A stretch of 64,000 nt of DNA from Candidatus Puniceispirillum sp. (GCA_016778895.1 JADHOR010000005.1:33636-97635), one strand, 5' to 3'. Numbered from the stretch's first letter, positions 18,638 through 57,057 are shown. Notes: generated by a model not told the origin, from the letters alone. Program-made: numbers and translations.

Positions 18638-19525
18638 TTGGCGAAAATTGGATTTGTGGGCCTGGGGCAAATGGGAAGTGCAATGTGCCCTCACCTTATA
18701 AAAAATGGTCACCAAGTTACGGTCTATGACGTTTCGCAAGAAGCTGTATCTGCCCTTGAGAAGCAAGGTGCAAAAGGTGCGAAATCTCCAAAAGAGGCCG
18801 CACAAGGCTGCGAGGCGGTTTTTGCTATTTTGCCGATTGGTGCAATAGTAGAGAAGGCTGTTCTCGGCCCAGATGGAATCGCGGATGGAATGTCCAATAA
18901 TGCAATATTTGTTGATATGAGCACGATTCTGCCAGACGAAACTCGTCAGATTGGCAAACGCCTTGCTGATCGGGGGTTCTCTATGGTTGATGCTCCTGTC
19001 GGTAGAACATCAGCGCACGCAGTCAATGGGAAATCAACTTTTATGGTTGGAGGCCAAAAACAAGATATTGATCGTGTGGTGCCATTCCTAGAATGCATGG
19101 GGGAGGCCATAACGTACTGTGGTGAACTAGGTTAAGGTTCTGTTGTAAAATTAGTGAATAACTATATTTCAGCTGTATCTAACCTAGTTACGGCAGAAGG
19201 GTTAGCGCTAGGCCTGAAGTCGGGCGTTAGTCAAGATGTAATGGTGGAAGTGATCTCTAAGACTCCGGCAGGCCTTGGGCACATCACCACGGCTTGGCCA
19301 GGAAAGGCATTATGTGATAATCCCTTGCCGGCTTTTATGTTAGATCTGGCGCGTAAGGACATTGGTCTCGCTCTGACAGCTGGAGCATCCTCGAAAGTGC
19401 CGTTATCCACAGGTTCTGTTGCCCGTGAGGTTTACAATATTGCAAGTGCAGCGGGCCGTGGGGAGGAGGATTGGACAACAGGAATTTACAGAACTGTAAA
19501 AAGCCTCTCAAAAATAACAGAATAG
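18638..19525 (+). pseudogene. HIBADH-family (beta-hydroxyacid dehydrogenase) gene interrupted by one in-frame TAA
   Basis: ORFs 18638-19135 and 19154-19525 are in the same frame. Reading through gives ...ITYCGELG*GSVVKLVNNYISAV, so the TAA at 19133-19135 sits inside the conserved G-x-G-xxx-K-L-x-N-N motif. The intact paralog at 28324 has GPVGCGLKAKLVNNY at that position. The N-terminus GFVGLGQMGSAM is the Rossmann motif. Confidence 0.75.
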
Positions 19526-27315: not shown

Positions 27316-27479
27316 TTCAACTAGAAATTATTCTCAGTGCGATTAGCTTTACTACGGTTGTATGCAAAGTTACCAACTCATGCGAATTGTTCAAATGTGA
27401 AAAATTTGCAGTTGTAGGTCTGGGATGGTGTAATCATTTCTCCTTGCGATAAAAATTCCTAGAAAAGGATTGTGGTTTG

Positions 27480-28256
27480 ATGATTAAACTTCAACAAAAA
27501 TCGATTGTAGTTACAGGTGGTGCCAGCGGTATTGGAGCCGCTATTTGCACTGCTGCGCATAAAGAAGGGGCTACGGTTGGTATCGTTGATATTAATGGTG
27601 ATGCGGCGCAAGAGTTATGCACAGCGCTTGGCCGTCGCGCTCACTTTGCGGTTGGTGATGTTGAGTCGGAAGGATCAATAGATGCTGCGCTGGAGAAGCT
27701 CTCTACAAGCATGCCTGCCTTTAACGGTTGTGTGACCTCCGCGGGCATAATGCCAACCCGAGAACCAATAGAAGAAATGCCACTAGAAAATTTTAAAAGA
27801 GTGCTTGAAAATCATATCAACGGCACATTCGTTACTTGCAAATTAGTTGGCAGGCGAATGCTAGCCACAGGTGGAGGTTCTATAGTTACAATGTCATCAG
27901 TGTTGGCGTTGAGACCTGGGCCTGTACTAGGATATGGCGCTGGTAAAGCAGCAATAAAGAATCTTACCCAGGCCATGGCTGTTCAATGGAGCAAAAAAAA
28001 TATCCGTGTCAACACAATCTGTCCGGGTTGGGTTGACACCCCGTTTATCAGAAAACAGGAAGCAGCGGGACGAGATTTATCACCAATTCTCAACATGACG
28101 CCGATGGGCAGAATGGCCTTGCCGTCAGAGATTGCCAATATTGCTTTGTTTTTGTTATCTGATTTATCGAGCGCCATGACAGGTTCTGTCACTGTTGCTG
28201 ATTGCGGCATAACACTTGCCGGCGGATATCTTCCATATGGAGAATTACCTGAATAG
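27480..28256 (+). CDS. Short-chain dehydrogenase/reductase (SDR)
   Basis: TGGASGIGAAI cofactor motif and the YGAGKAA (YxxxK) catalytic motif. I prefer ATG 27480 over the TTG at 27477. Confidence 0.9.
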   Translation: MIKLQQKSIVVTGGASGIGAAICTAAHKEGATVGIVDINGDAAQELCTALGRRAHFAVGDVESEGSIDAALEKLSTSMPAFNGCVTSAGIMPTREPIEEMPLENFKRVLENHINGTFVTCKLVGRRMLATGGGSIVTMSSVLALRPGPVLGYGAGKAAIKNLTQAMAVQWSKKNIRVNTICPGWVDTPFIRKQEAAGRDLSPILNMTPMGRMALPSEIANIALFLLSDLSSAMTGSVTVADCGITLAGGYLPYGELPE

Positions 28257-28323: not shown

Positions 28324-29211
28324 GTGTTGGGAACTGTGGAACAAAAAATCCTTTTTATTGGGCTCGGAATTATGGGAGCTCCAATGGCAAAAAACATTAT
28401 TCGAGAGGGCTTTGACGTTGCTGTGTGCGACATTCAGCAGAATGTTGTCGACGGATTTAAGGGCGTCGCCTCGGCCGGATCGACTAATCCCTGTGAGGCG
28501 GCTGATCAACGTAATGTAATTATGATGATACTGCCAAACAGTGATATTGTTGATGCAGTGTTGTTTGATAAGGGTGGCGTTTTGGAAACCTGTGCACCAA
28601 ACAGCCTTATTGTGGATATGTCGACAGGCTCATACCCAAAATTGATGGAAACAGCAAAGCGTGTTGCCAACCGGGGTCACAGATTTGTTGATGCACCTGT
28701 TGGCCGGACACCTCGGGAGGCAATCACCGGCAACCTTCTCGTGATGGCGGGTGGAGAGGCAGATGACGTTGCAGCGCTTGATGGTGTTTTCAACGCCGTG
28801 GGCGATACAATTCTTCATGTTGGTCCAGTAGGTTGCGGCTTGAAAGCAAAACTTGTCAATAATTACATGGCTATGGTCAATAACGCATTGACTGGAGAAA
28901 CGCTTTCTCTAGCAAAGGCTGCGGGACTTGATGTAAGGGCTATGGCAAAATTGATGAGTTCAACGGCGGCTGGGCTTGGTCAACTCAATACAAATTATCC
29001 TAAAAAAGTTCTTGCAGGCGACCTGACGCCAGACTTTCCGATTTTTATGGCGGTTAAGGATTTGAATATGGCAATAGAGCTTGCAGAAATTGCAAACCAC
29101 AAAGTTCAATTTGGAAGAGTGGCTCGAGAAAAGTTCATCAGTGCAGAAAAAGCTGGGATGGGGGGCCTTGATCAAACAGCTATTCTTGAATATTTCATGG
29201 GCTCCCAGTGA
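28324..29211 (+). CDS. HIBADH-family NAD(P)-dependent beta-hydroxyacid dehydrogenase or aldehyde reductase (intact paralog)
   Basis: GLGIMGAPMA Rossmann motif, DAPVGRTP and GPVGCGLKAKLVNNY. The start is uncertain: GTG at 28324 or GTG at 28336. Confidence 0.85.
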   Translation: MLGTVEQKILFIGLGIMGAPMAKNIIREGFDVAVCDIQQNVVDGFKGVASAGSTNPCEAADQRNVIMMILPNSDIVDAVLFDKGGVLETCAPNSLIVDMSTGSYPKLMETAKRVANRGHRFVDAPVGRTPREAITGNLLVMAGGEADDVAALDGVFNAVGDTILHVGPVGCGLKAKLVNNYMAMVNNALTGETLSLAKAAGLDVRAMAKLMSSTAAGLGQLNTNYPKKVLAGDLTPDFPIFMAVKDLNMAIELAEIANHKVQFGRVAREKFISAEKAGMGGLDQTAILEYFMGSQ

Positions 29212-31002: not shown

Positions 31003-31749
31003 ATGGATTTTCTTGGGCTTGGTTATGAAAATTTATTAATTTGTCTGCTTAGCATAGTGGCTGGGGGGTTCATGCGGGGCTTTCTCGGTTTCGGCGCAGC
31101 ACTTGTAATTGTGCCAACGCTTAGCTTCACACTCCCGCCAGTTGTTGCTGTTGCTATCCTCGTTATAATTGAGATTCCAACGATACTTTACCTCGTGCCA
31201 ACTAGTATTCGTGATTCCAATTTAAAGACTGTTATACCGATGTTAATCGGTATTATTGTTGCCGTGCCCGTAGGTACTGCTGTTTTAGTTGAGGTCAATC
31301 CCGCTAAAATGAAACTGGTCATTTCTTTTACTCTACTAATGACCGTGGCTCTTCTCGCTTCGGGCTGGCGTATAAAGGGTGTTGTTGGCAAGGCTGTTAT
31401 GTCAGGTTCAGGGTTGGTAGGCGGATTTATACAAGGCGCTGCTGGAATGGGCGGCCCTCCACTAGTAACAGCGTTAATGTCATTACCGGATAATGCAAGC
31501 ACTACCCGCGGCAATATTGTCATTGCACTCAGTTCAATGTCATTGATTAACTTTGCTGCTTTACTTGTTTACGGTCAGTTCAGCGATGACGTTTTAACGT
31601 TTGGCATCATCAGTGCCCCCATATATGTGTTGTCAAATTATTTGGGCGCACAGTTTTTTCGTCAGCAGGGCAACGAACATTTTCGCCGTGCGGCACTCAT
31701 TGCGCTTGCGTTGATTGCCATTGTAACAATTTACACAAACTTATCATAG
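31003..31749 (+). CDS. TauE/SafE (DUF81) family anion permease, copy 1
   Basis: 248 aa, Gly-rich and polytopic (GFMRGFLGFGAALVIVP ... GFIQGAAGMGGPPLV), as is typical of DUF81. Confidence 0.8.
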   Translation: MDFLGLGYENLLICLLSIVAGGFMRGFLGFGAALVIVPTLSFTLPPVVAVAILVIIEIPTILYLVPTSIRDSNLKTVIPMLIGIIVAVPVGTAVLVEVNPAKMKLVISFTLLMTVALLASGWRIKGVVGKAVMSGSGLVGGFIQGAAGMGGPPLVTALMSLPDNASTTRGNIVIALSSMSLINFAALLVYGQFSDDVLTFGIISAPIYVLSNYLGAQFFRQQGNEHFRRAALIALALIAIVTIYTNLS

Positions 31750-31976: not shown

Positions 31977-32969
31977 ATGAAAATTTTAAAGCCAGTTCTT
32001 GGCTCAATGTTTGCGGCTCTGCTGCTAGTAGCAGGACCTGCAAACGCAAAAAAAGTAACGATGAACATTGGTTACTCGGTTAACGAAGGCCATCCATATG
32101 GCACTTTCATGCATTTGTTTGCTGAGCGCTTCGAGACACTTTCAGGCGGCACGGTTCGTGTGAAGGTGCACTGCTGCCATAAAATGGGTAGTGAGCAGGA
32201 GCAATTTAAGAAACTTCAGCTTGGCACTCTTGATGGGACAATGATTGCGCAGAACAACGCCGGACCATTTTACCCAAAAATTGATTTGTTGGTGCTGCCC
32301 TATATGATCCAAAACTATGATCATGCTGTGAAGATTGCAGATGGTCCGGTTGGTCAAGACATTTGGGGTGGAATGCCAAAAGAAGTTGGTGTTCACCTTG
32401 TCACGATCCCACTGTTCTCATTCCGTCACATCTACAACACTAAGATGCCTATCAACAATCTAGCTGACTTTGCAAAAATGAAGTATCGGGTGCCAAAAAA
32501 CACTGTGATGGTTGACACATATAAGGCGTTTGGATCAGACCCTGTGCCAATTGCTTGGTCAGAGGCGCTGACCGCTACGCAGACTGGAACTGTTGATGGC
32601 GGTGACTTGCCTTTGGACGTTCAGTACTCACAGAAGTTCCACGACATTGCAAAGCATGTAGCGATGACTGGACATTTTGTCCTGGCTCCGCCATTTTTTG
32701 TTAGTGACTCGTTTATGAAAAAGCTTGACGACAGTCAAATGGAAGCTATGCAAATGGCGGCGAAGATTGCCACTGCTGCATCACGGTTCCACACTAACTA
32801 CGGTATGTCTATCGTGCAAAAAAAGATGGAAGCGACCGGTGTGACGTTTACTCAGCCAGACATCGGCCCTTGGGTTGAAAAAGCAAAGGCTGTGCACACT
32901 GCTTTTGCCAAGGAGCGCGGTCCCGAGTATGCCGCAATCATGGATAAGATCTATGCGGCAGCAAAGTAA
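31977..32969 (+). CDS. TRAP transporter substrate-binding protein (DctP family)
   Basis: 330 aa with a signal peptide ending in ANA. It has the DctP-family layout, including a conserved Arg region (MKYRVPKN), and is followed by the Q and M subunits. Confidence 0.9.
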   Translation: MKILKPVLGSMFAALLLVAGPANAKKVTMNIGYSVNEGHPYGTFMHLFAERFETLSGGTVRVKVHCCHKMGSEQEQFKKLQLGTLDGTMIAQNNAGPFYPKIDLLVLPYMIQNYDHAVKIADGPVGQDIWGGMPKEVGVHLVTIPLFSFRHIYNTKMPINNLADFAKMKYRVPKNTVMVDTYKAFGSDPVPIAWSEALTATQTGTVDGGDLPLDVQYSQKFHDIAKHVAMTGHFVLAPPFFVSDSFMKKLDDSQMEAMQMAAKIATAASRFHTNYGMSIVQKKMEATGVTFTQPDIGPWVEKAKAVHTAFAKERGPEYAAIMDKIYAAAK

Positions 32970-33040
32970 ATAAGTAACTTACAAGCTGGCTCCCAAACCT
33001 GGGGGCCAGCTTTTACATTTTGACAAGTGAGATTGCTAAA

Positions 33041-33550
33041 ATGTGGAAATTTTTAGAAAAACATTTTGAAGAAATTTTAGCTGGTATTCTTGTAATGTTT
33101 ATGGCTTCGATGGTGTTTTTCCAGGTCGTCATGCGCTACTTGTTTAATATGCCGACCTCTTGGTCCGACGAATTGGCAATTTATGCAATGTTGTGGTCAG
33201 TTTATATCTCAGTCGCATGGGCAGTTCGAGAGCGCGCGCACATTCGTGTGATGAATTTTGTACAATTGTTGCCATCAAAAATGGCCCTTGGGATGACAAT
33301 TTTTAGTGATCTTATATGGTTTCTTTTTGGAATTTTTCTCACCTATCAGAGCATTTTGTTGGACCTGTCTTTCTGGAAAGACGAATACCGTTCACCAGCG
33401 TTAGATATTGATCAAAAATGGCCATACATGTGCCTTATCCTTGGCTTTGGTCTGATGACTTTGAGGTTGGCGCAGGTTTATTACCGCTGGATAAAATATG
33501 GCGAGCCAATCCTAGAGCCCCGTGACGATGAGGATTTACCTCATGCTTGA
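33041..33550 (+). CDS. TRAP transporter small permease (DctQ family)
   Basis: A 4-TM small membrane protein between the P and M subunits. I prefer ATG 33041; the ORF track starts at TTG 33020. Confidence 0.85.
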   Translation: MWKFLEKHFEEILAGILVMFMASMVFFQVVMRYLFNMPTSWSDELAIYAMLWSVYISVAWAVRERAHIRVMNFVQLLPSKMALGMTIFSDLIWFLFGIFLTYQSILLDLSFWKDEYRSPALDIDQKWPYMCLILGFGLMTLRLAQVYYRWIKYGEPILEPRDDEDLPHA

Positions 33551-34877
33551 CCTTTTGATGGACTTTATTTTTGACCTGTCAGAAGGCCAGCAGGCTTTGA
33601 TCATGTTTGGCTCAATGATCTTAATGATTGTTCTTGCAGTTCCAATTCCAATAGCTGTCGCCATAGGTACAGCGATTGGTTATTTTATGATGGACCTGAA
33701 TTTGGTTCAAGTTGTGCTGTCCATGTATACTGGCGTGGAGCCATTCCCGCTGGTAACAGTTCCATTATTTGTTTTCGCGGGCTCCTTAATGGAGCAGGGA
33801 GGTATGGCACGCCGTATTGTGAATATGGCGCAATCAATGATCGGCAATTATACGGGAAGTTTGGGTCTAGTGGCAGTTCTGGGCTGTGCTTTTTTTGCCG
33901 CCTTGTCTGGGTCTGGCCCAGCGACTACGGCTGCTATCGGCGCTGTTATGATACCATCAATGATTAAGCAGCGTTGGGATCCTGCGATGGGCGGTGCAAT
34001 TGCTGCCGCTGGCGGTGCGCTTGGGAGTCTCATTCCGCCAAGTAACCTAATGATTATTTATGGTATTGTTGCCGAACAATCCATTCCGCGTTTATTTCTC
34101 GCTGGCTTCATACCTGGTTTCTTTGCGACTGCTCTGTTGATGTTAACGGTCTATATAATCGCCAAACGGCGAAATTATGTCGGTGATGGGTCAATTTTCT
34201 CTTGGGCAGAGGTTGGGAGGACAATGGCTGATGGGAAATGGGCCATACTTGCGCCATTCATAATTCTCGGGGGTATCTACAGTGGGGCTTTTACCCCCAC
34301 AGAAGCCGCGTCTGTAGCTGTTTTTTATGCATTACTGATTGGTGGTGTTGTTTACAGAGAGCTAACAGTTAAAAAAATACTGGTCTGCCTAAAAGTGACC
34401 GCAATGATTTCAGGTGCAGTTTTGATTATTGTGGGTCCAGCGAAAGCTTTTGGGGAGTTGATGAGCCTTTTGTCTGTTCCGGACATGATTGGAGAAGCTT
34501 TAAGTGGCGTGACGGAAAACCCATTCTTGCTGCTAATGATTATCTCAGTAATCTTGATAATTACTGGCATGTTCCTTGAGTCAATTGCTCAGATTATTCT
34601 TCTTACGCCTTTGCTGCTGCCTATCGTGGTGGCGCTCGGTATTGATCCTATAGTATTTGGCATTGTGATGGTAATTTCCTGTGAGGTGGGCTTTTTGACG
34701 CCGCCTGTTGGCGCAAACCTTTTTGTTGCTGCGCGAATAACAAACCTTGGAATTGACAAGATTTCGGTTGCGGTTCTCCCGTTTCTTCTGGCTTATATTG
34801 GTGTGCTTGTGCTTGTTGCGCTCTTCCCAGATGTCGTCACTTGGTTGCCGAATTTGGTCTATGGTAAGTTCGGCTAG
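33543..34877 (+). CDS. TRAP transporter large permease (DctM family)
   Basis: A polytopic protein of about 445 aa. ATG 33543 overlaps the dctQ stop (ATGCTTGA). Confidence 0.9.
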   Translation: MLDLLMDFIFDLSEGQQALIMFGSMILMIVLAVPIPIAVAIGTAIGYFMMDLNLVQVVLSMYTGVEPFPLVTVPLFVFAGSLMEQGGMARRIVNMAQSMIGNYTGSLGLVAVLGCAFFAALSGSGPATTAAIGAVMIPSMIKQRWDPAMGGAIAAAGGALGSLIPPSNLMIIYGIVAEQSIPRLFLAGFIPGFFATALLMLTVYIIAKRRNYVGDGSIFSWAEVGRTMADGKWAILAPFIILGGIYSGAFTPTEAASVAVFYALLIGGVVYRELTVKKILVCLKVTAMISGAVLIIVGPAKAFGELMSLLSVPDMIGEALSGVTENPFLLLMIISVILIITGMFLESIAQIILLTPLLLPIVVALGIDPIVFGIVMVISCEVGFLTPPVGANLFVAARITNLGIDKISVAVLPFLLAYIGVLVLVALFPDVVTWLPNLVYGKFG

Positions 34878-39254: not shown

Positions 39255-40055
39255 TCAAATAAGATTGTTCAGTCCTCGTATGATAAGCGTGAAACCACCG
39301 CAAGCCAGTGCAAAATGAACAAAATGACGAAAGGTTTTTTCAGAGATGCGTTGGCGTGTCAAATGCCCCGCTTGTTGTCCGGCGATAGTTGGAATAATCA
39401 TAGTAGCTGATAACAAGAGGCTATCACCAACAGGAAACCCAGCATGAGAAATACCTAGCCACAAAGCGATATAGCCGAGCGATAGAAACACGCCAAGCAA
39501 CATCGCAAGCTCGTCTTTGCTAACGCGCATCATCATAAATAACTGTACGCTGGGAAAAGAATACATGCTGGTAAAACTGCCCAGAATGCCTGATGTGATG
39601 CCTGCTGGGATAATTAGCCGTTTGAGGCTTTGGACTTTTATGGTTCGTTGCCGAAATTGGGGCAGTGGAAAGCTGGATAAGATAGAGTGAAGAGAAATAA
39701 GCAGTCCAATCAAAATGCCAAGTGAATGACTATCAACCGTTACCATAATGGGCGCCCCTATTAGCATTATTAGGGTAGCGGCGCCAACAAGTGGCCAAAA
39801 TTGTCTCAAAATGCGCCAATGCGCTCGATTGAGCCAGATTTGTTGAATGTTGGCCACAATAATTGGTAAGGCAAGAACAGCAACAGTTTCGGGGAGTGAC
39901 AGTGCAAATAGCATAATGGGTGTAGCAATCAGCGGTAACCCAAATCCTAATGCGCCCTTAACAAAACAGCCTAGAAGAACTGCAGTTAGCACGATTATGA
40001 AATCAGCTGAAATTAGAGTCTCGATAATCATCGTGTCATATCCTGAAATACTCAA
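39255..40055 (-). CDS. TauE/SafE (DUF81) family anion permease, copy 2
   Basis: 266 aa and polytopic (CFVKGALGFGLPLIATP...). It is the first gene of a two-gene unit with GMC paralog 3. Confidence 0.8.
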   Translation of the reverse strand: MSISGYDTMIIETLISADFIIVLTAVLLGCFVKGALGFGLPLIATPIMLFALSLPETVAVLALPIIVANIQQIWLNRAHWRILRQFWPLVGAATLIMLIGAPIMVTVDSHSLGILIGLLISLHSILSSFPLPQFRQRTIKVQSLKRLIIPAGITSGILGSFTSMYSFPSVQLFMMMRVSKDELAMLLGVFLSLGYIALWLGISHAGFPVGDSLLLSATMIIPTIAGQQAGHLTRQRISEKTFRHFVHFALACGGFTLIIRGLNNLI

Positions 40056-40425
40056 TGGCTGGGATTTTGTTCAGCTTGAAGACATGATGTTGAGCCAGTC
40101 TTGTCCCCAATTTCCAACAATCATGTCAGAGGATCAAGCCACCAATCGCATTTCAAGAGCAAGCAGATTAGACAATCTATGGATAGTCCAGGATTAAAGG
40201 GATTGTCGACTTAAAAAAATATGCGTACCGTCGTCAGGCTTTAGAAGCGTGGGTTGCGGCGTCAAAGGCCGAGCGTCTTTTGAGGCCAGCGGGCGCTCAT
40301 GTGAGCAGATTTAATAGGCAAGTGTAGGTTCAATCAAAGCCAGCAGGCCTAGGGTTTGTCTATGTTTAGAAATCTTCATTCCTGGGTGTTTATCCCCACA
40401 TCCTTCATTCAAGAATTGGGCTGTG

Positions 40426-41181
40426 ATGAGCTTTGATGTAATAATGCTCATCATCGCTGGTGCGCTTGCTGGTGGTTTTGCCAATGGCCTTGCTGGGTTT
40501 GGTACTGGCCTTTTTGCGCTCGGGTGGTGGCTAGCGGCAATGCCGCCATTAGATGCGGTTGTCACGGTTGTGATCATGTCGTTGGTTGGTGGTTTGCAGG
40601 GCTTGTACGCCGTTCGCAACGCCATTGATAAAGTCGAACAAATACGATTTTTAGCACCGGCATTGGTTGGTATTGTCATAGGTTATTTGCTTTTGGATGC
40701 GGTGAATGTCACGATGCTGAAACTCCTGGTAGCAAGCCTACTTATTTTGTTTGGTGGTTTTTTTACCTTTCGCAAAACCTTGCCAAAATTAACCAAACGT
40801 TATCTTGTGGCCGATATGCTTGTTGGGTTTATTGGTGGTCTCTTTGGTATGGTGGCTGGAATGTCCGGAGCGATTTTAACCATGGGATGCTCACTTTATG
40901 ACTGGTCAAAGGCGCGTCGACGCGCATTGGTACAGCCTTTCAATATGATCGTCTTGGGAACGGTGCTGGTTTTGATGGCCTGGCGCGGGTCAATCGGCCA
41001 GCACATCTGGCTGATTGTTGCGGTGGCCTTTCCATTTTCGATTATTGGCACGCAAACTGGTATTTTTATGTTTCGCTGGTTAAATGATCAGCAGTTTCAG
41101 CGGCTGCTGATATGGTTGATTCTTGCATCGGGTCTTGTTCTTGCAGGACGCGAATTAACTGCTATCATCGTTTCGAGGTAG
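40426..41181 (+). CDS. TauE/SafE (DUF81) family anion permease, copy 3
   Basis: About 251 aa and polytopic (GGFANGLAGFGTGLFALG...). It is divergent from copy 2. The start is ATG 40426 or GTG 40423. Confidence 0.8.
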   Translation: MSFDVIMLIIAGALAGGFANGLAGFGTGLFALGWWLAAMPPLDAVVTVVIMSLVGGLQGLYAVRNAIDKVEQIRFLAPALVGIVIGYLLLDAVNVTMLKLLVASLLILFGGFFTFRKTLPKLTKRYLVADMLVGFIGGLFGMVAGMSGAILTMGCSLYDWSKARRRALVQPFNMIVLGTVLVLMAWRGSIGQHIWLIVAVAFPFSIIGTQTGIFMFRWLNDQQFQRLLIWLILASGLVLAGRELTAIIVSR

Positions 41182-41233
41182 TTTATTAATTGCGTCATTC
41201 CAATGTTTAAAAATTAGTTTCAAGGGTGTTGTG

Positions 41234-44670: not shown

Positions 44671-45612
44671 TCACAAGTTGCGGATTGGCTGTCCAGCAAT
44701 CATTGCCTCAACTGCTTCTAGTGTTTCGCCGTAAAAAATTTCCATGGTCTCACGCGTGACATAGCCTATATGAGGGGTCATCAAAAGATTGGGTGTTGCA
44801 CGCAAAGGATCATCCGGGGGCACAGGTTCGAGATCATAGACATCAATCGCCGCGCCAGCGATTTGTCCGGTGGCAAGTGCATTGGTCAATGCCTGCATAT
44901 CTATGATAGGGGCGCGTGAGGTATTAACCAAATACGCCTCGGGTTTCATCATTGCCAACTCTTTTGCAGCGACTAGATGGCGAATCCGGTCAGATAATTT
45001 TAGATGAATTGAGATGAAATCTGAAGTTTTGAAGAGGGTACTTCGATCAACATAGGAAACACCGACCTCATTACATCGCTCAACAGTTAGGTTCTGAGAC
45101 CATGCCTGAACATTCATGCCAAAAGCCTTAGCGTAATGAGCAAGCTGTTCTCCAAGTCTGCCAAGGCCCAAGATGCCTAGTTTCGTCCCACGAAGATCAC
45201 GCCCGAGATGTGTTTGCCAGCCGCCATTGCGCATTGAAGTCGCGCTGGCAAAGAGCTGTCGGGCCTGCATTGTAATCAAGCTAAAGGCGAGTTCAGACGT
45301 AGCATGGCCGGGTGAGCTGGTTCCACTTACCATGATGCTCCGGGCTTTGGCCGCATCAATGTCCAGTGCCGCATTTCGCATACCGCTGGTCACAATTCCC
45401 TTTAGGTTTGGGAGCTTATCCATTAAAGCAGCGGTAATGGGGGTTCGCTCGCGCATCATGCAAATGATGTCATAGGGCTGCAAGCGTGCAATAAGCGGAT
45501 CGCCTCTGACAGTGTCATGAAATACGTCAATCTGGACATTTGCACCAAGTTGGCTCCAGTCACAGCTGGATAACGCACAATCAAGCCAGTCATCTAAAAT
45601 TGCCAATTTCAT
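44671..45612 (-). CDS. D-isomer-specific 2-hydroxyacid dehydrogenase
   Basis: 313 aa with the NAD motif LGILGLGRLG and catalytic-region segments NTSRAP, AAIDVY and TPHIGY. Confidence 0.9.
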   Translation of the reverse strand: MKLAILDDWLDCALSSCDWSQLGANVQIDVFHDTVRGDPLIARLQPYDIICMMRERTPITAALMDKLPNLKGIVTSGMRNAALDIDAAKARSIMVSGTSSPGHATSELAFSLITMQARQLFASATSMRNGGWQTHLGRDLRGTKLGILGLGRLGEQLAHYAKAFGMNVQAWSQNLTVERCNEVGVSYVDRSTLFKTSDFISIHLKLSDRIRHLVAAKELAMMKPEAYLVNTSRAPIIDMQALTNALATGQIAGAAIDVYDLEPVPPDDPLRATPNLLMTPHIGYVTRETMEIFYGETLEAVEAMIAGQPIRNL

Positions 45613-50203: not shown

Positions 50204-50953
50204 TTAATAGCCAAATGTCTTTGAGATGATTTTGGCTGACTCGACCAACAATGTGCGCCGTGCCATCGCCTCGTCCAAATCAAAGCGCTGTTTCGGCCCA
50301 TGAATCGCCAGCGCCGCGACATAACGCCGGCGTGAGTCCAGCACCGGCACGGCAATCGCAATCATGCCGTCATGGAATTCTTCCAAATCAAGCGCAAAGC
50401 CATCTTTGCTGATCCGTTGCAACTCGTCCTCCAGTGTTTCGGTACTGGTATGGGTGTGTTCTGTATAGGCGCGCAGGTCCAAGCTATCGATCAAAACCCG
50501 CCGTTTTTTTGGCGGCAGGCTGGCAAGATAGGTCTTGCCGCTTGCTGTGCAATGAAAAGGTACATGTGTTCCGACTGGTAGCAGAACCCGGAAGGGCCAA
50601 TTCGTCTCGACGCGGTCAGCATAGATCATGCCCTTGATTTCTGGCCTGACGAAATTCACCGTTTCGCCGGCCTTGCGCGCGATATTCTGCAAAATTTGAT
50701 GGCGCGTGGTCTGGCCGGTTGCGTGCTGTGCCAACCCCGCAGCAAGCGAAAGAAGGCGTTTTGTAGGGTGAAGACGGCGTGCCTGTTTGACAAGATAACC
50801 CTCGGCAATCAGTGTCTGGCAAAGCCGGTGCAGACTTTGCTTGGGCCAGTCGAGCTGTTCGTTGATCTCGGTTGGCGTAAGGGGGCGTCCGGCATCCGCG
50901 ATCACTTCAAATATCCTTAAGATCCGCAAATTTGGTGGAGTTGAGTCGGTCAT
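50204..50953 (-). CDS. IclR family transcriptional regulator
   Basis: N-terminal wHTH (LRILRIFEVIADAGRPLTPTEINEQL) and an IclR effector domain. The start is ATG 50953, with GAAGG 7 nt upstream. The ORF track extends to 50986. Confidence 0.9.
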   Translation of the reverse strand: MTDSTPPNLRILRIFEVIADAGRPLTPTEINEQLDWPKQSLHRLCQTLIAEGYLVKQARRLHPTKRLLSLAAGLAQHATGQTTRHQILQNIARKAGETVNFVRPEIKGMIYADRVETNWPFRVLLPVGTHVPFHCTASGKTYLASLPPKKRRVLIDSLDLRAYTEHTHTSTETLEDELQRISKDGFALDLEEFHDGMIAIAVPVLDSRRRYVAALAIHGPKQRFDLDEAMARRTLLVESAKIISKTFGY

Positions 50954-51062
50954 TATGGTGCCTTCTTTCACGCGCAACTCCCACACGAAAAGAACAATGG
51001 CGGCAAAATTGTCTTGAACAAGCCACAGATTCGTGCATGATTTTACTCTTTATCTAATAATA

Positions 51063-51109: not shown

Positions 51110-52705
51110 TTGGAGTTTGATTACGTCATCATTGGCGCTGGGTCGGCTGGTTGTGTAATTGCGAACCGTCTGTCGGCGAACCCGTCTGTTTCCGTGGCGC
51201 TGGTCGAGGCCGGAGGCCGGGATAGCTATCCATGGATTCATATTCCAGTCGGTTATTTCAAAACCATGGGCAATCCAAAAACCGACTGGTGCTATCGTAC
51301 ACAGCCTGACCCTGGGTTGAACGGGCGTTCGATCAATTGGCCGCGAGGCAAGGTGCTTGGCGGCAGCAGTTCGATCAACGGGCTTTTATATGTTCGTGGG
51401 CAACCGCAGGATTTTGACCATTGGCGCCAGCTTGGCAATGCGGGTTGGAGCTGGGGTGACGTGCTGCCATTGTTCCGGCGGGCCGAAAATTGGGAAGGTG
51501 CGCCATCGCCTGAACGAGGTGTTGGGGGCCCTTTGAATGTATCGGAAAACAAGGTTGATCGTGACATTATTGATGCGTGGGTTGATGCGGCGGCAAATGC
51601 TGGGTACCGGCGCACGGACGATTATAACCGCGAAGATCAAGAGGGTGTTGGCTTTTTTCAGATGACGATGAAAAATGGTCGACGCTGTAGCACGGCCGCA
51701 GCGTATCTGAAGCCGGTTCTGGCTCGTAAAAATTTGCATATCTTCACCCATGCGCATACTGACAGGATCGAGTTCGAGGATAAGCGCGCCACCGCAGCGT
51801 TGGTCAGGATTAACGGAAAAAATCAGCGGATCAGCGCGCGGCGCGAGATCATTCTGTCGGCAGGGGCGATTGGATCGCCGCAGCTCCTGATGCTATCTGG
51901 CATTGGCGATCAGCATGATCTTGGCCAGCACGGCATTGCCGCGACTCATCATTTGCCGGGTGTGGGGCGTAATCTGCAGGACCATTTGCAAGCCCGCCCC
52001 GTTTTTAAATGCAATGCCAGTACAATCAATACCGAAACTAAAGACCCGTTTCAGCTTGCAAAAATTGCGCTGAAATACGCGCTGAAACGATCTGGCCCGA
52101 TGGCAATGGCAGCCAGCCTTGGCACGGCATTTCTGAAAACACATCCGGCTTTAGAAACCCCTGACATTCAGTTTCATCTTCAGCCGTTCAGCGCTGACAA
52201 TATTGCAGATGGCAGCCATGATTTTTCGGCCTTTACCGCCTCGGTTTTACAGTTGAGGCCAGAAAGTAGGGGTCATATCGAACTGGTTTCATCAAAGCCT
52301 GAGGATTATCCGGCGATCCATCCGAATTATCTGGCAACTAAAACTGACTGCGAAACGCTTGTCGCCGGTATCAAGATTGCCCGTGCGGTTTGCCGCACCG
52401 ATCCGGTCAAATCACTGATTACCGAAGAGCACGCGCCGGGGCCAGCTGTGGCAGATAATGATGATGCGGCGATCCTTGAATGGGCGCGCAATACCTCTAC
52501 AACGATCTATCATCCCACCGGCACCTGTAAAATGGGTCAGGATAAAATGGCGGTTGTTGATGAAAAGCTGCGCGTTTATGGCGTAAGCGGATTGCGGGTT
52601 GCAGATGCGTCGATCATGCCGACCATCACCTCGGGTAATACCAACGCGCCGACCATAATGATTGGGGAAAAACTCTCAGATTTGATCTTGGAGGGGGCGG
52701 GATGA
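51110..52705 (+). CDS. GMC family FAD-dependent oxidoreductase, paralog 4
   Basis: TTG start, then EFDYVIIGAGSAGCVIANRL, GGSSSINGL, HPTGTCKMG and [17 protein letters not shown]. It is divergent from the IclR regulator. Confidence 0.9.
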   Translation: MEFDYVIIGAGSAGCVIANRLSANPSVSVALVEAGGRDSYPWIHIPVGYFKTMGNPKTDWCYRTQPDPGLNGRSINWPRGKVLGGSSSINGLLYVRGQPQDFDHWRQLGNAGWSWGDVLPLFRRAENWEGAPSPERGVGGPLNVSENKVDRDIIDAWVDAAANAGYRRTDDYNREDQEGVGFFQMTMKNGRRCSTAAAYLKPVLARKNLHIFTHAHTDRIEFEDKRATAALVRINGKNQRISARREIILSAGAIGSPQLLMLSGIGDQHDLGQHGIAATHHLPGVGRNLQDHLQARPVFKCNASTINTETKDPFQLAKIALKYALKRSGPMAMAASLGTAFLKTHPALETPDIQFHLQPFSADNIADGSHDFSAFTASVLQLRPESRGHIELVSSKPEDYPAIHPNYLATKTDCETLVAGIKIARAVCRTDPVKSLITEEHAPGPAVADNDDAAILEWARNTSTTIYHPTGTCKMGQDKMAVVDEKLRVYGVSGLRVADASIMPTITSGNTNAPTIMIGEKLSDLILEGAG

Positions 52706-53352
52706 ATATCAGCGGTCTTGATTTTACCCGATATGGTACCGCCGAGGTAACCGATATTGCGCAGATCATTTTCGCCGATATCATCTTGTCGGGTGATAAT
52801 GCGCTAGTGATCGGTATGGCGGCGGCAGGGCTGGCCCCCGGGCAACGCAAACGTGCGATTGCCATTGGCATGGCGGTGGCGGCGATATTGCGCATTGTCT
52901 TTGCAGTTATCGCTGCTCAATTGCTGGCAATCAAGGGCATTCTCTTGATTGGTGGCGGATTGCTCGCCTGGGTCTGTTACCGCTTCTACCAAGATTTGAA
53001 AGACTTTAACGGTAACGCCGCAAGCGGGGCCGCGCTGGGTGAGGCGGAAGCAGAGAAGCCGGCGGAAAAAAGCTTTGGTCGCGCCTTGGTGACCATATTA
53101 GTTGCTGATGTGTCAATGTCGATTGATAATATTGTCGCGGTGGCAGCGATTGCCCGCGATAACACGGTGCTTTTGATTTTTGGCCTCGGGCTGGCGATCG
53201 CCTTTATGGCGTTTAGTGCCTCGCTAATTATGCGGGTGATGATCAGGCATCGGTGGTTGTCATATCTCGGATTGTGGTTCCTGATCTATCTGACGGTTAT
53301 GATGATCTATGATGGATTAATCGATCTTGGGTTTATCGCGGCGATCTTTTAG
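52702..53352 (+). CDS. TerC/YjbE-family integral membrane protein
   Basis: 216 aa with the duplicated motif SGDNALVIG / SIDNIVAVA typical of the TerC family. Its ATG overlaps the GMC stop (ATGA). Confidence 0.85.
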   Translation: MNISGLDFTRYGTAEVTDIAQIIFADIILSGDNALVIGMAAAGLAPGQRKRAIAIGMAVAAILRIVFAVIAAQLLAIKGILLIGGGLLAWVCYRFYQDLKDFNGNAASGAALGEAEAEKPAEKSFGRALVTILVADVSMSIDNIVAVAAIARDNTVLLIFGLGLAIAFMAFSASLIMRVMIRHRWLSYLGLWFLIYLTVMMIYDGLIDLGFIAAIF

Positions 53353-53629
53353 TGGTGCCGCAAAGGTCGAGATGTGAATTGGTTTATCAGGCAAGTGGAA
53401 ATGATGTTTGGTTTAATTGTCGGAAATGGCTGTAGTCGGACAAAACTATGTTGAAAGATCTTCATCAGCATGGTGCGGCTAGGAGGAATAGCTGAAGGTA
53501 ACTTGAAAGACACTATTATGGAATGATGGAATTTATGATAATTCAGTTGATTGGTCTCGCATTAATCTTTCTGTTTAGGCAGATTGCGTTATGGCCTCCC
53601 ACTTACATTTATGGGCAATAGGAAACTAA

Positions 53630-54922
53630 ATGACGATAACTTATCTGAAGAAGGCGGAAAAAACGCCGCAAACCGGCAGTGATGAAACACGCAAGATCGT
53701 TGCTGATATGCTTGCTAAAATTGAGGCGGGTGGCGAGGAGGCTGCGCTTGCCTATGGGCGTGATCTTGACGGCTATAGCGGTGCTGCGATTGTAAGTGGT
53801 GAGGTGATTGCGGCGGCAGCGGCAACAATTTCGCCGCAGTTAAAGGACGATATTCAATTTGCCTATGGCAGGGTAACAAAATTTGCCAAGGCCCAGCTCG
53901 CATCGATTAACGAATTTGAAACCGAATTATCGCCCGGATTATGGGCTGGCCAGAAACTGATCCCGATTGAAACGGCGGGCTGTTATGTGCCGGGCGGTCG
54001 TTATGCTCATGTAGCCTCGGCGATTATGTCAATTGCTACGGCCAAGGTGGCGGGTGTTAATCACGTCGTTGCTTGTACCGCGCCGCATGGCAAGGAAGGC
54101 CCAAATCCGGCGATTATTTATGCGATGAATCTTTGTGGTGCCGATACCATTCTATCGCTTGGCGGCGTTCAGGGAATTGCCGCGATGGCCTTTGGGTTAT
54201 TTACCGGCAAACCGGCGCGTATTCTGGTCGGCCCAGGAAACCGGTTTGTTGCCGAGGCAAAACGAATGCTTTATGGCCGTGTCGGCATTGATATGTTTGC
54301 AGGCCCGACCGAAATTGCGGTGATTGCTGATGATAGCGCTGATGCGGCGGTGGTCGCCGAAGATCTGGTCAGTCAGGCCGAACATGGCCCGGACTCGCCG
54401 GCATGGCTGATCACGACATCGCGCCAGTTAGCTGACGATGTGATGGCGCAAATGGATCGTCACATTAATGCCTTGCCGGAAACTGCGCGGAATGCCGCCA
54501 CCGTGGCATGGCGCGATTATGGCGAGGTGATTTTGTGTGATAGTGACGAGGAAGCGGCTCAAATGTCGGATGAATATGCCGCCGAACATCTTGAAATTCA
54601 TACAAGCAAGGATGAATGGTATACCGCGCGTCTAAAAAATTACGGATCGCTGTTTATTGGTGAAGAAACCACGGTGACTTACGGCGATAAATGTTCAGGC
54701 ACAAACCATATCCTGCCAACCAAGGGTGCAGCGCATTATACTGGCGGTCTTTCAGTTCATAAATATCTGAAAATTGTTACAACGCAGCGCATGACCAAAG
54801 AGGCTAATCGCGAGGTGGGACAGGCGGCCGCGCGGATTTCGCGGCTGGAAGGTATGGAAGGCCATGCCCGTGCGGCTGATGTGCGGTTGCGCAAATATTT
54901 CCCCGGAGAAAATCTTGGCTAA
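53630..54922 (+). CDS. hpsN: Histidinol dehydrogenase-family paralog, candidate sulfopropanediol (DHPS) 3-dehydrogenase HpsN
   Basis: 430 aa of the HisD family (GCYVPGGRYAHVASAIM, SQAEHGPDSPAW). Its context is catabolic rather than histidine biosynthesis. An SDR and a Zn-ADH follow directly, in the hpsN-hpsO-hpsP order described for Ruegeria pomeroyi and Cupriavidus pinatubonensis. Confidence 0.6.
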   Translation: MTITYLKKAEKTPQTGSDETRKIVADMLAKIEAGGEEAALAYGRDLDGYSGAAIVSGEVIAAAAATISPQLKDDIQFAYGRVTKFAKAQLASINEFETELSPGLWAGQKLIPIETAGCYVPGGRYAHVASAIMSIATAKVAGVNHVVACTAPHGKEGPNPAIIYAMNLCGADTILSLGGVQGIAAMAFGLFTGKPARILVGPGNRFVAEAKRMLYGRVGIDMFAGPTEIAVIADDSADAAVVAEDLVSQAEHGPDSPAWLITTSRQLADDVMAQMDRHINALPETARNAATVAWRDYGEVILCDSDEEAAQMSDEYAAEHLEIHTSKDEWYTARLKNYGSLFIGEETTVTYGDKCSGTNHILPTKGAAHYTGGLSVHKYLKIVTTQRMTKEANREVGQAAARISRLEGMEGHARAADVRLRKYFPGENLG

Positions 54923-55673
54923 TGCTGGCTTGAGCCTATTTGATATCAATGGCAAAACGGCCCTGATAACCGGTGGCGGCAGTGGCCTTGGCCAGTTTAT
55001 GGCAAAGGCGCTGGCCGAGGCTGGGGCGAATATCTACCTCGTTGGGCGGCGTGAAGATAGATTAAAAGCAAGTCTTGGCAGTCACGACGGGGCGGTATTT
55101 CCGCTTGATCTGGTTGAACGCGGTGCGGCGGATCGTTTGTTTGAGATGGTCACAGCACAAGGCAGGCAGCCTGACATCATCGTCAATGCTGCCGGTATTA
55201 ACCCGCGTCGGCCGGCGGATGAAATTTCCGAGTCCGAATGGCATTACACGGTCGATCTGAATTTGAATGTTCCGTTTCTGGTTAGCCAGAAATTTGTGCC
55301 GCATATGAAACATGCGGGGTGGGGACGAATTATCAATATCGCCTCTTTGCAATCCACCCGTGCTTTTGAAAATGGCATCGCCTATGGTGCAGCTAAAGGC
55401 GGTATCTTGCAACTTACTCGTGCGATGGCACAGGCATGGTCGCCCCACGGTATTACCGCTAATGCGCTGGCGCCGGGGTTTTTCCCGACGGAATTGACCG
55501 CGCCGGTTTTTGCTGATCAGGCCGCTGCGCAAAGGCTCGCAAATGCGACCGCGATTGGTCGCAATGGGGTGCTTGAGGATATTCGGGGGCCATTGCTGTT
55601 TTTGGCGTCAGATGCCAGCAGCTATGTTACCGGCCAGTCAATTGCGGTAGATGGGGGGTTCACGGCAAAATGA
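54915..55673 (+). CDS. hpsO: SDR-family dehydrogenase, candidate DHPS 2-dehydrogenase HpsO
   Basis: TGGGSGLGQ cofactor motif and YGAAKGG (YxxxK). I prefer TTG 54915, which has GGAG 6 nt upstream. Alternative starts are TTG 54930 and ATG 54864. Confidence 0.55.
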   Translation: MANAGLSLFDINGKTALITGGGSGLGQFMAKALAEAGANIYLVGRREDRLKASLGSHDGAVFPLDLVERGAADRLFEMVTAQGRQPDIIVNAAGINPRRPADEISESEWHYTVDLNLNVPFLVSQKFVPHMKHAGWGRIINIASLQSTRAFENGIAYGAAKGGILQLTRAMAQAWSPHGITANALAPGFFPTELTAPVFADQAAAQRLANATAIGRNGVLEDIRGPLLFLASDASSYVTGQSIAVDGGFTAK

Positions 55674-56686
55674 AAGCGCTAGTTTATACTGGCACGCAAT
55701 TGTCGGAGATTCGTGATGTTGAATTGCCGGTTGCCGGCCCAGGTCAGGTTTTGGTTGATCTGGCCTTTTGCGGTATCTGCGGATCGGATATGCACGCATG
55801 GCACGGGCATGATGAACGCCGCGTGCCACCGCTTGTGCTTGGGCATGAAGCTGTTGGCATTGTGCAGGCCGTTGCGGTTGCCACTAATGTTACAAGTGGT
55901 CTAATTGGTAAACGGGTCGCGATTAATCCATTGATGACCTGCGGGATTTGTGATTTCTGCACGAGCGGCGATGAGCATCTGTGCGCTAAGCGTGAATTGA
56001 TTGGCATGCGGGTTCCGGGTGCCTTTGCTGAAAAACTGGCGATTGATGCTGGTAATTTAACCGTGATTGATGATGGCTTATCCTTTGCCGAGGCAGCGCT
56101 AGCCGAGCCGCTGGCCTGTTCGGTTCATGCGGTACGACTTGCCTGCCAACTTGACGGGGATAATCTCGATGTGAGCGTTGTTGTACTTGGTGGCGGTGCA
56201 ATCGGGCTTTTGACCGCGCTGGTGTTTGAGGCCTATGGCTACAAGGATATCTGGGTTGCAGAGACCAACCCGCTCCGCCGCAAAATGCTGGAAAATATTG
56301 GCTTGATGCGGGCCTATGATCCGCTGCATGAGGCGCCGGGTGCGCGCCAGATTGATATTGTTGTTGACGCGGTTGGCTCGGGCGCGACGCGCCATGCGGC
56401 CAGCATGATGGTGCGGCCGGGCGGGGTAATTGTGCATATCGGTCTGCAGGATAACGAAGCTGGCCTTGATACGCGCCGCATCACCCTGCAGGAAATTAAA
56501 TTTCAGGGCACTTACTGCTATCGCAAAGATGACTTTGCCGAAGCATTGGCGCTGCTGACGAGTGGCAAGATCAGTGGTAAGGGCTGGGCAGACATTCGGC
56601 CGCTTGGTGAGGGTGCACGATCTTTTATCGATATTCACGAAGGTAAGGCGCCACCAAAGATTATTCTACAGACAAGCGAGGTGTGA
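55670..56686 (+). CDS. hpsP: Zinc-dependent alcohol dehydrogenase (MDR family), candidate HpsP
   Basis: GICGSDMHAWHG and GHEAVG zinc motifs, a structural Zn Cys cluster (CGICDFCTSGDEHLC) and the cofactor motif VLGGGAIG. Its ATG overlaps the SDR stop (ATGA). Confidence 0.55.
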   Translation: MKALVYTGTQLSEIRDVELPVAGPGQVLVDLAFCGICGSDMHAWHGHDERRVPPLVLGHEAVGIVQAVAVATNVTSGLIGKRVAINPLMTCGICDFCTSGDEHLCAKRELIGMRVPGAFAEKLAIDAGNLTVIDDGLSFAEAALAEPLACSVHAVRLACQLDGDNLDVSVVVLGGGAIGLLTALVFEAYGYKDIWVAETNPLRRKMLENIGLMRAYDPLHEAPGARQIDIVVDAVGSGATRHAASMMVRPGGVIVHIGLQDNEAGLDTRRITLQEIKFQGTYCYRKDDFAEALALLTSGKISGKGWADIRPLGEGARSFIDIHEGKAPPKIILQTSEV

Positions 56687-57057
56687 TGATGCAACCTTCA
56701 CTGTTTTCAGGCTTTCAGAAACTAGCGCTTACGGCGCTGATATGTATGTCTTTTTTGCAGGCAGTGCCGGCCCGTGCTGATTTTATCAATGGTGATCAAT
56801 TGGGGCTTTACTGCACTTCAAAAAATCCAAATGACGAAGCGGTCTGTTTCGTCTATCTCGCCGGCGCTGTTGATGCGTTTACCACGATTAATTTGATGGG
56901 CGAGAAAGCCAGGGGGACAAAGTGGCAGTTCTGCCTTCCCGATGGCGTATCGCTGGTTCATTTAAAGGCCATAACGATGACATGGTTGGAACGGCCTGAG
57001 GCCAATCTTGACCTAGCGGCAACTTTGCTGATTTGGGGGACAATCAAGGACGCCTAA
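56686..57057 (+). CDS. Small secreted Rap1a/Tai4-like protein (putative T6SS amidase-effector immunity family)
   Basis: A signal peptide (LALTALICMSFLQAVPARA), then LGLYCTS...AVCFVYLAGAVDAF...FCLPDGVSLVHLKAITMTWLERPEANLDLAATLLIWGTI. This pattern resembles the Rap1a/Tai4 family as I recall it. The start overlaps the ADH stop. Confidence 0.5.
   Translation: MMQPSLFSGFQKLALTALICMSFLQAVPARADFINGDQLGLYCTSKNPNDEAVCFVYLAGAVDAFTTINLMGEKARGTKWQFCLPDGVSLVHLKAITMTWLERPEANLDLAATLLIWGTIKDA

Follow-up and report, generated by a model that had tools for sequence, protein, structure and literature searches.

A probable hpsN-hpsO-hpsP operon in a SAR116 genome, with candidate genes for sulfur release on other contigs

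Gene content of the locus

The 64-kb stretch of DNA analysed here (the window; coordinates count from its first letter) belongs to a SAR116 / Candidatus Puniceispirillum assembly of 2.17 Mb in 61 contigs, 99.6% complete, and carries at 53630-57057 a set of genes resembling hpsN, hpsO and hpsP, which act in the oxidation of 2,3-dihydroxypropane-1-sulfonate (DHPS). DHPS ranks with the most abundant forms in which phytoplankton hand organic sulfur on to bacteria, and SAR116 is an abundant surface-ocean clade for which we know of almost no experimental sulfonate biochemistry. An earlier note on this DNA had proposed that a histidinol dehydrogenase (HisD)-like gene, a short-chain dehydrogenase/reductase (SDR) gene and a zinc-dependent alcohol dehydrogenase (Zn-ADH) gene at 53630-56686 form an hpsNOP trio, and had pointed out that no desulfonation genes accompany them.

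The reading of the trio as overlapping or adjacent genes of these families stands. Three co-directional open reading frames (ORFs) were listed, at 53630-54922 (430 aa), 54864-55673 (269 aa) and 55670-56686 (338 aa), and Pfam and NCBIfam place them in Histidinol_dh (PF00815, E 2e-133), SDR (adh_short_C2) and Zn-ADH (ADH_N and ADH_zinc_N), respectively; the start of the second gene was corrected. With a small fourth gene, they make up the following features:

53630..54922, + strand: putative hpsN, (R)-DHPS 3-dehydrogenase (sulfopropanediol 3-dehydrogenase, EC 1.1.1.308), 430 aa; PDB match, residues and tree
54915..55673, + strand: putative hpsO, SDR-type R-DHPS dehydrogenase, 252 aa from TTG 54915; ORF also open from ATG 54864
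55670..56686, + strand: putative hpsP, Zn-dependent S-DHPS dehydrogenase, 338 aa; PDB match and residues
56683..57057, + strand: small protein of the Rap1a fold, 124 aa (PF18602, E 1e-10); translationally coupled fourth operon gene

TTG 54915 is the more likely start of hpsO, and ATG 54864 the less likely, because GGAG lies 6 nt upstream of the TTG (which overlaps hpsN by 8 nt), because the related locus L033 uses the same hpsO start, and because the alignment to structure 8WWF begins at residue 2 of the 252-aa form. The stop of hpsO overlaps the start of hpsP by 4 nt, and the stop of hpsP overlaps the start of the fourth gene by another 4 nt. We regard 53630-57057 as a translationally coupled operon of hpsN, hpsO, hpsP and the Rap1a-fold gene. 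The last has homologues behind hpsP in 13 of the related loci scanned (39-83% identity) and looks like a conserved accessory gene of such hps operons, at the position of the UspA-type hpsQ of Ruegeria pomeroyi. A promoter and terminator scan of 50-58 kb gave counts no higher than shuffled sequence, with no clear terminator behind hpsP or the Rap1a-fold gene.

Identity of HpsN

Judged by its sequence, the product of 53630-54922 is a true HpsN and not a HisD. Against PDB entries it scores 573.6 bits with 8V35 (CpHpsN, the sulfopropanediol 3-dehydrogenase of Cupriavidus pinatubonensis), gapless over residues 3-427, and 500 bits with the R-DHPS dehydrogenase 8WWE, and the best true HisD reaches 253 bits. 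Identity is 59.5% to the C. pinatubonensis and 58.7% to the Leisingera caerulea protein, both taken, like the other comparison sequences from these two species, from annotated plasmids.

The diagnostic residues agree with these scores. G-R-Y-A/S-H is an HpsN-specific motif whose final histidine (His126 of CpHpsN) binds the sulfonate together with Lys353 (Lee et al., PMC11382572); further key positions are the catalytic Glu318/His319 and the zinc ligand Asp352 in Cupriavidus numbering, and His320, Asp353 and His360 in Ruegeria numbering (PMC11382572, PMC11131964). In the window protein, GRYAH occupies 123-127 and GDK 352-354, and E319/H320, D353/K354, H360, Q249/H252 and H412 are conserved. The HisD of the same genome, with which it shares 33% identity, carries GKAAY and GDY at the motif positions.

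The gene for that HisD, the separate biosynthetic hisD that the earlier note had suggested looking for, is one of two TIGR00069 matches in the genome: it lies at C38:4983-6167 (C numbers denote contigs), scores 523 bits to the window copy's 429, and adjoins murA. The phylogeny that the note had likewise suggested sets the protein apart from HisD. In a quick IQ-TREE analysis of 57 sequences, which includes one fragmentary row (L133) with a very long branch, the window protein falls in a clade with the characterised CpHpsN (Shimodaira-Hasegawa-like approximate likelihood ratio support 98), and the HisD class, with the C38 copy, lies beyond a long branch. Tree and C38 hisD together rule out that the window protein is the sole hisD or clusters with HisD.

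A third HisD-family class, a sister clade of HpsN present in other Puniceispirillales families (L132, L134, L137), is about 47% identical to the window HpsN. Its members share the HisD fold, Lys354 and the residues for zinc binding and catalysis. Where HpsN has G-R-Y-A-H, however, they have G-K-Y/F-P-M and so lack the sulfonate histidine, which the window HpsN keeps.

Identity of HpsO and HpsP

The other two assignments are supported by active-site residues and synteny, and that of HpsP also by its closest solved enzyme. The SDR scores 289 bits with 8WWF (RpHpsO) and is 58.2% identical to the Leisingera and 47.9% to the C. pinatubonensis HpsO. The Zn-ADH, a protein of the MDR fold, scores 279.6 bits with 8WWD (DsHpsP of Dinoroseobacter), its next PDB match reaching 114 bits, and is 45.4% identical to the L. 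caerulea and 42.4% to the C. pinatubonensis HpsP. Key residues are Ser145/Gln147/Tyr158/Lys162 in RpHpsO, where Gln147 reads the C2 hydroxyl of R-DHPS, and His59/Glu60/Glu139 in DsHpsP (Liu et al. 2024, PMC11131964). They align with S144/Q146/Y157/K161 of the window HpsO (252-aa numbering) and with H59/E60/E146 of the window HpsP, in which the zinc cysteine clusters are also kept. A further PDB entry, 6LE3, named gluconate 5-dehydrogenase, scores 283 bits with the window HpsO and may perhaps itself be an unrecognised HpsO-type enzyme.

What has to be revised is the function that the note had given for the pair. The original proposal was that HpsO and HpsP racemise DHPS via a 2-oxo compound, a view since superseded (PMC11131964). 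Rather than interconverting the enantiomers, each enzyme oxidises one of them at C3 to sulfolactaldehyde, HpsO acting on R-DHPS and HpsP on S-DHPS, and a GabD-type dehydrogenase then forms sulfolactate (Liu et al. 2024, PMC11131964).

Fate of sulfolactate

The window indeed contains none of SuyAB, SlcD/ComC, Xsc or CuyA, as the earlier note had observed: in a whole-genome search, every match to these enzymes fell on another contig or nowhere. The contig that carries the window has a single match of the FMN_dh family, which is not SlcD-type: it is local, scores 27 bits and falls within an ORF of 1516 aa.

Elsewhere in the genome, the same search found xsc and cuyA, no suyAB, and no slcD-type gene over threshold. 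Xsc is encoded on C47 (1042 bits; curated cut-off 620), and its neighbours are a TauD-like dioxygenase and an ATP-binding cassette (ABC) transporter, not hps genes. ComD (151.4 bits; cut-off 147.95) and ComE (230.6 bits; cut-off 221.5) are both on C32, and are 77% and 67% identical to the ComDE encoded inside the Leisingera hps operon. CuyA is on C44 (491.6 bits; cut-off 450, NF052482). For SuyB and SuyA, there was neither a match to PF04295, the UxaA-family C-domain of SuyB, nor a tblastn match with the Cupriavidus SuyA and SuyB in this nearly complete genome.

The note had offered three fates for sulfolactate: export, handling elsewhere in the genome, or cleavage by something not yet described. 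Because Xsc, ComDE and CuyA, all above their cut-offs, are encoded elsewhere in the genome and SuyAB is not, the second is favoured: sulfolactate is most likely degraded inside the cell via sulfopyruvate, as in the pathway variant already known to use Xsc/CuyA (PMC11382572). Organisms combining hpsNOP with Xsc/ComDE and/or CuyA, with the sulfolyases encoded elsewhere, have been described; sulfolyases are often not co-located with hpsNOP, and 29 organisms carry both the Xsc and the CuyA routes (Lee et al., PMC11382572).

Several other steps have candidates. A GabD-type aldehyde dehydrogenase on C55, above its cut-off, could be the sulfolactaldehyde dehydrogenase, a role shown for GabD-2 of R. 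pomeroyi. The genome also encodes a SorA-like molybdoenzyme, which, along with three TauE permeases of the window, could handle sulfite. Two genes of the cysteate racemase CuyB family (PF01177) lie on C34 and C12, neither near cuyA; the sulfopyruvate aminotransferase is unidentified even in R. pomeroyi (PMC11382572).

For the oxidation of sulfolactate to sulfopyruvate there are three kinds of candidate. The best match to the gene at the SlcD position of Leisingera, which belongs to the FMN-dependent alpha-hydroxy-acid oxidase family, is an FMN_dh gene at C25:5439-6512 (49% identical). There are also three Ldh_2 (ComC-family) genes, the best of which, at C37:9549-10529, scores 253 bits against a sulfolactate dehydrogenase cut-off of 500. 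The third is a D-2-hydroxyacid dehydrogenase gene at 44671-45612 in the window, from the family that contains SlcC, its likeness to SerA and SlcC being at the family level only (PMC6303947). The C25 block as a whole (FMN_dh, a thiamine pyrophosphate enzyme, GcvT-like and Ldh_2 genes) was considered as a dedicated sulfolactate module and rejected, the 49% identity of FMN_dh being all that spoke for it; its MttB-like and GcvT-like neighbours suggest methylamine metabolism.

A separate observation concerns the surroundings of cuyA. In the region C44:110-118 kb (L024:6709-13384), some 3.5 kb separate cuyA from a second ComD/ComE-like pair, whose scores of 112 and 146 bits stay under the sulfopyruvate decarboxylase cut-offs; alpha/beta hydrolase, methyltransferase and aldehyde dehydrogenase genes lie in between. 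A spacing of about 5 kb from cuyA to the ComE-like gene recurs in several genomes of the genus, as a conserved CuyA-linked thiamine diphosphate decarboxylase.

Conservation and comparison with known hps systems

The closest loci (84-96% HpsN identity) come from Candidatus Puniceispirillum / SAR116 metagenome-assembled genomes (MAGs) and single-cell genomes, and hpsN-(O)-P synteny recurs in most of 80 related loci. We also surveyed a sample of related genomes, 18 from the same genus and 12 from three other families of the order; the counts describe this sample and are not a statistical test. Within the genus, the HpsN class is found in 14/18 genomes, Xsc in 14/18, true ComE in 17/18 and CuyA in 12/18, and a SuyB-family match, a weak one, in 1/18. 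All 12 genomes of the other families have a SuyB-family gene, which in four of them (G020, G023, G025 and G026) lies within 4 kb of an hpsN-class copy, and CuyA and true ComE occur in 0/12 each. The SuyAB route of the sister families thus appears to have given way, in the genus, to ComDE/Xsc and CuyA genes scattered over the genome. Bloom metagenomes have already yielded SAR116 MAGs that carry comDE and numerous tauE genes, as well as alphaproteobacterial hpsN (bioRxiv 10.1101/2024.12.10.627767).

Among known systems, the hpsKLM-hpsNOP-(hpsQ)-slcD/comDE clusters of Roseobacteraceae (R. pomeroyi SPO0590-0598; a Leisingera caerulea plasmid, L146) have the same N-O-P order and overlapping genes as the window, whose trio is 59%, 58% and 45% identical to that of Leisingera. 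The downstream logic is also that of the window's genome, sulfolactate being converted to sulfopyruvate and then processed by ComDE/Xsc or CuyA (PMC4334477; PMC11382572). The surroundings differ. The LacI-type regulator HpsR is absent from the window, where an IclR regulator stands upstream instead; the HpsKLM-type tripartite ATP-independent periplasmic (TRAP) transporter is not adjacent to the operon and has no orthologue in the genome; the UspA-type hpsQ is absent, a Rap1a-fold gene following hpsP; and slcD-like, comDE, xsc and cuyA genes are spread over four other contigs and not linked to the operon. As the earlier note had stated, hpsN-O-P stands beside a TRAP system in R. pomeroyi (SPO0591-0596, PMC4334477), but no TRAP adjoins the operon here.

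The hpsRNOUP-suyAB cluster of C. pinatubonensis (L108; 8V35) encodes an HpsN with the same active-site and sulfonate-binding residues as the window protein (59.5% identical), along with HpsO and HpsP at 48% and 42%. Unlike the window's genome, which has no homologue of either, it also encodes an importer of the major facilitator superfamily, HpsU, and the sulfolactate sulfo-lyase SuyAB.

Proposed pathway and alternatives

We conclude, with a probability of roughly 0.8, that the trio is a genuine hpsN-hpsO-hpsP operon for DHPS oxidation, with sulfur release via genes on other contigs. What this genome itself shows are the gene identities, the diagnostic residues and which of the pathway genes it has or lacks. 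By transfer of enzyme roles from characterised homologues, HpsN, a Zn/NAD-dependent enzyme of the HisD fold, would carry R-DHPS to R-sulfolactate in a four-electron oxidation; HpsO (SDR) would oxidise R-DHPS, and HpsP (Zn-ADH) S-DHPS, to sulfolactaldehyde, from which the candidate GabD-type aldehyde dehydrogenase of C55 would form sulfolactate. The C-S bond would be cleaved by genes outside the window. A putative dehydrogenase step, for which no gene is confidently assigned, would turn sulfolactate into sulfopyruvate, and two routes may lead on from there. In one, ComDE (C32) would decarboxylate sulfopyruvate to sulfoacetaldehyde, which Xsc (C47) would split into acetyl phosphate and sulfite. 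In the other, sulfopyruvate would be transaminated to cysteate, which CuyA (C44) would split into pyruvate, ammonium and sulfite. Sulfite could leave through TauE-type permeases or be oxidised by the SorA-like enzyme, and a probable iseR-iseJ pair upstream of the operon may feed isethionate into the same sulfoacetaldehyde/Xsc node. Substrates, fluxes, importer and regulation, like the sulfolactate dehydrogenase, are what we infer beyond the gene content.

Three other readings were weighed. That the HisD-like gene is a redundant histidinol dehydrogenase, with unrelated dehydrogenases as neighbours, has next to no chance of being right: the protein does exceed the cut-off of the NCBIfam hisD model (429 vs 243.8 bits), and the Prokaryotic Genome Annotation Pipeline (PGAP) calls such genes hisD in many plasmid records, but the idea is already contradicted by an identity of 33% to the genome's own HisD vs 59% to CpHpsN, by His127 and Lys354, which HisD lacks, by the housekeeping hisD on C38, and by the inactivity of CpHpsN on histidinol (PMC11382572). 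Excretion is improbable, although better placed. Here the operon would make sulfolactate that the cell exports, for example through a TauE- or EamA-type permease, and Xsc, ComDE and CuyA would serve other substrates, such as taurine, isethionate or cysteate. The want of a confidently assigned sulfolactate dehydrogenase, the three TauE permeases and one EamA permease in the window and the location of xsc beside TauD-like dioxygenase and ABC transporter genes rather than hps genes would all fit. Yet the only known substrate of ComDE is sulfopyruvate, and true ComDE is found in 17/18 sampled genomes of the genus; the orthologous ComDE (77%, 67%) belongs to the hps operon itself in Leisingera; and the genome has several plausible sulfolactate dehydrogenase paralogues. 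A shade less probable than excretion is that the trio's substrate is not free DHPS but a related hydroxy-sulfonate or polyol, such as the product of the cluster genes of loci L067 and L070 described below; DHPS would then not be the physiological entry substrate. Orthologues of window genes that lie 10-30 kb from the operon join hpsNOP contiguously in those two loci, and the TRAP system of near relatives has been lost from this genome; against this, the window enzymes keep every residue by which the characterised DHPS enzymes bind the sulfonate or determine stereochemistry, and the contiguous arrangement is confined to one lineage.

DHPS oxidation completed by genes on other contigs remains our preferred reading, and the following points count against it. 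The window HpsO scores only 6 bits higher with 8WWF than with 6LE3 (289 vs 283), and because the two are so close, the likely HpsO assignment draws on residues and operon context, not on score alone. In the whole-genome search, no enzyme for the step from sulfolactate to sulfopyruvate reaches its curated threshold. There is no stand-alone Pta: the Paracoccus Pta gives no match at E 1e-20 in the genome, whose only PTA_PTB domain sits inside a 755-aa (malic-enzyme-like) ORF on C4. On the transport side, neither an orthologue of a characterised DHPS-binding protein nor one of the TRAP system that stands between TerC and hpsN in near relatives was found anywhere in the genome. RNA support comes only from metatranscriptome contigs of low depth, obtained from four salt-marsh RNA runs. 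Their short pieces cover the probable iseR, the GMC and TerC genes, hpsN and the hpsO/hpsP and hpsP/Rap1a junctions; they were set aside as evidence of expression or co-transcription, since DNA carry-over is possible and gaps are uninformative.

Genes on other contigs account for the desulfonation steps that the window lacks, the known pathway being present in scattered form. An hps locus with no adjoining sulfolyase does not imply excretion of sulfolactate. The residues also give reason to count the SAR116 gene among the true hpsN genes, a distinction that matters for ocean gene surveys. As the pathway is already described, the outcome refines annotation rather than constituting a discovery.

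The upstream IclR-GMC-TerC module

Three genes precede the operon:

50204..50986, - strand: IclR-family protein, probable iseR-like regulator of its neighbours (Pfam IclR_C and HTH_IclR); 42% identical to the cluster IclR
51110..52705, + strand: GMC flavoprotein, probable IseJ (isethionate dehydrogenase); full-length identity of 61% to GMC genes of syntenic clusters
52702..53352, + strand: TerC/YjbE-family membrane protein (TIGR03717, 173 bits), coupled to the GMC gene

The divergent IclR-GMC pair is probably iseR-iseJ, because of its identity to, and the gene order of, ise-type clusters, and because xsc adjoins such a cluster in Paracoccus. The clusters compared are IclR-TRAP/GMC clusters on plasmids of Ruegeria sp. 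AD91A and Paracoccus seriniphilus, which keep the iseR-iseM-iseL-iseK/iseJ order of R. pomeroyi (PMC4334477); in P. seriniphilus, xsc stands directly behind the GMC gene, with pta nearby. Of the genome's seven GMC paralogues, the one at 51110-52705 is the best match to the cluster GMC genes. These clusters (R. pomeroyi SPO2355-2359 and the two above) have the same divergent IclR/GMC arrangement as the window, and their sulfoacetaldehyde product would meet Xsc, encoded on C47 here. Where they have an adjacent IseKLM-type TRAP, however, the window has a TerC/YjbE gene coupled to the GMC gene. If the pair is iseR-iseJ, the breakdown of isethionate and that of DHPS would meet at sulfoacetaldehyde and Xsc.

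Searching a large protein database with the GMC protein gave no functional lead, its homologues bearing none but generic names ('choline dehydrogenase', 'GMC family oxidoreductase'). An Rfam scan at E up to 0.1 gave no match, hence no Mn riboswitch before the TerC gene. The IclR-GMC-TerC block stands upstream of hpsN in many SAR116 and Rhizobiaceae MAG loci. Two loci that lost the GMC and TerC genes (L034 and L068) keep the IclR gene immediately upstream of hpsN.

Transport and the wider gene region

Further candidate genes for sulfonate metabolism lie upstream in the window:

28324..29211, + strand: YihU-like beta-hydroxyacid dehydrogenase; best model sulfolactaldehyde 3-reductase NF012005, 250 bits, below the cut-off of 348
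31003..31749, + strand: TauE/SafE permease 1, candidate sulfite or sulfonate exporter (PF01925, E 7.5e-24)
31977..34877, + strand: TRAP transporter DctP/Q/M (Pfam DctP, DctQ, DctM; DctP at 31977-32969), candidate DHPS importer by context only
39255..40055, - strand: TauE/SafE permease 2 (PF01925, E 1.2e-18)
40423..41181, + strand: TauE/SafE permease 3 (PF01925, E 2.3e-25)

The PF01925 matches confirm the three TauE/SafE permeases that had been noted before. Orthologues of the TRAP genes head the hpsN cluster in L070 (86/64/76% identity), and orthologues at 62-78% adjoin hpsN in L067 and L081. In a PDB search, the window DctP scored 114 bits with BwHpsK (24GH), much like its matches to SiaP, and RpHpsK (24GC-24GF) was not among the top matches; the DctP adjacent to the hps genes in L033 was no closer to RpHpsK, and sequence gave no transporter assignment.

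In the near relatives L033 (4305-8000) and L076, with 95-96% HpsN identity, a 3.7-kb TRAP system (DctP and a fused DctQM) lies between TerC and hpsN, a spacer that in the window (53353-53629) measures only 278 bp. Since this TRAP is absent here, and GMC and TerC are absent in L034 and L068, the TerC-hpsN locus would seem, from these comparisons, to be a place where genes are lost or gained particularly often in the genus.

L070 and L067 also share a contiguous block encoding TRAP, a 733-aa PHP-like protein, GMC, SDR, a YihU-like protein and HpsN-O-P, which in L070 ends with a fused SuyAB-like gene behind hpsNOP. Its first five genes are orthologous to window genes: the TRAP genes at 31977-34877, an orphan PHP/DUF3604-like enzyme of 779 aa at 41231-43570, a GMC gene at 21001-22620, an SDR gene at 27477-28256 and the YihU-like gene at 28324-29211, whose homologue directly upstream of hpsN in both loci is 40% identical. 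The contiguous arrangement was seen in this single lineage and is a lead, not proof. It suggests a feeder route in which some more complex sulfonate is imported and then yields DHPS or sulfolactaldehyde. In the genus, the step from sulfolactate to sulfopyruvate may also be performed by a type of dehydrogenase not yet linked to sulfolactate; the genome has, for instance, its seven GMC paralogues. That hpsNOP is the final stage of a larger, undescribed sulfonate pathway, that the genus has such a novel-type sulfolactate step, or both, we hold to be unlikely, although clearly less so than excretion or another substrate.

A second YihU-like gene, at 18638-19500, is 37% identical to the L070 copy and has an in-frame stop at codon 166, pointing to a pseudogene or an assembly error. 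Across 18000-46000 the G+C content is 0.43-0.48, compared with 0.50-0.56 on both sides; this region, which contains three of the four GMC genes in the window together with the TauE, TRAP and PHP-like enzyme genes, may be an acquired catabolic island.

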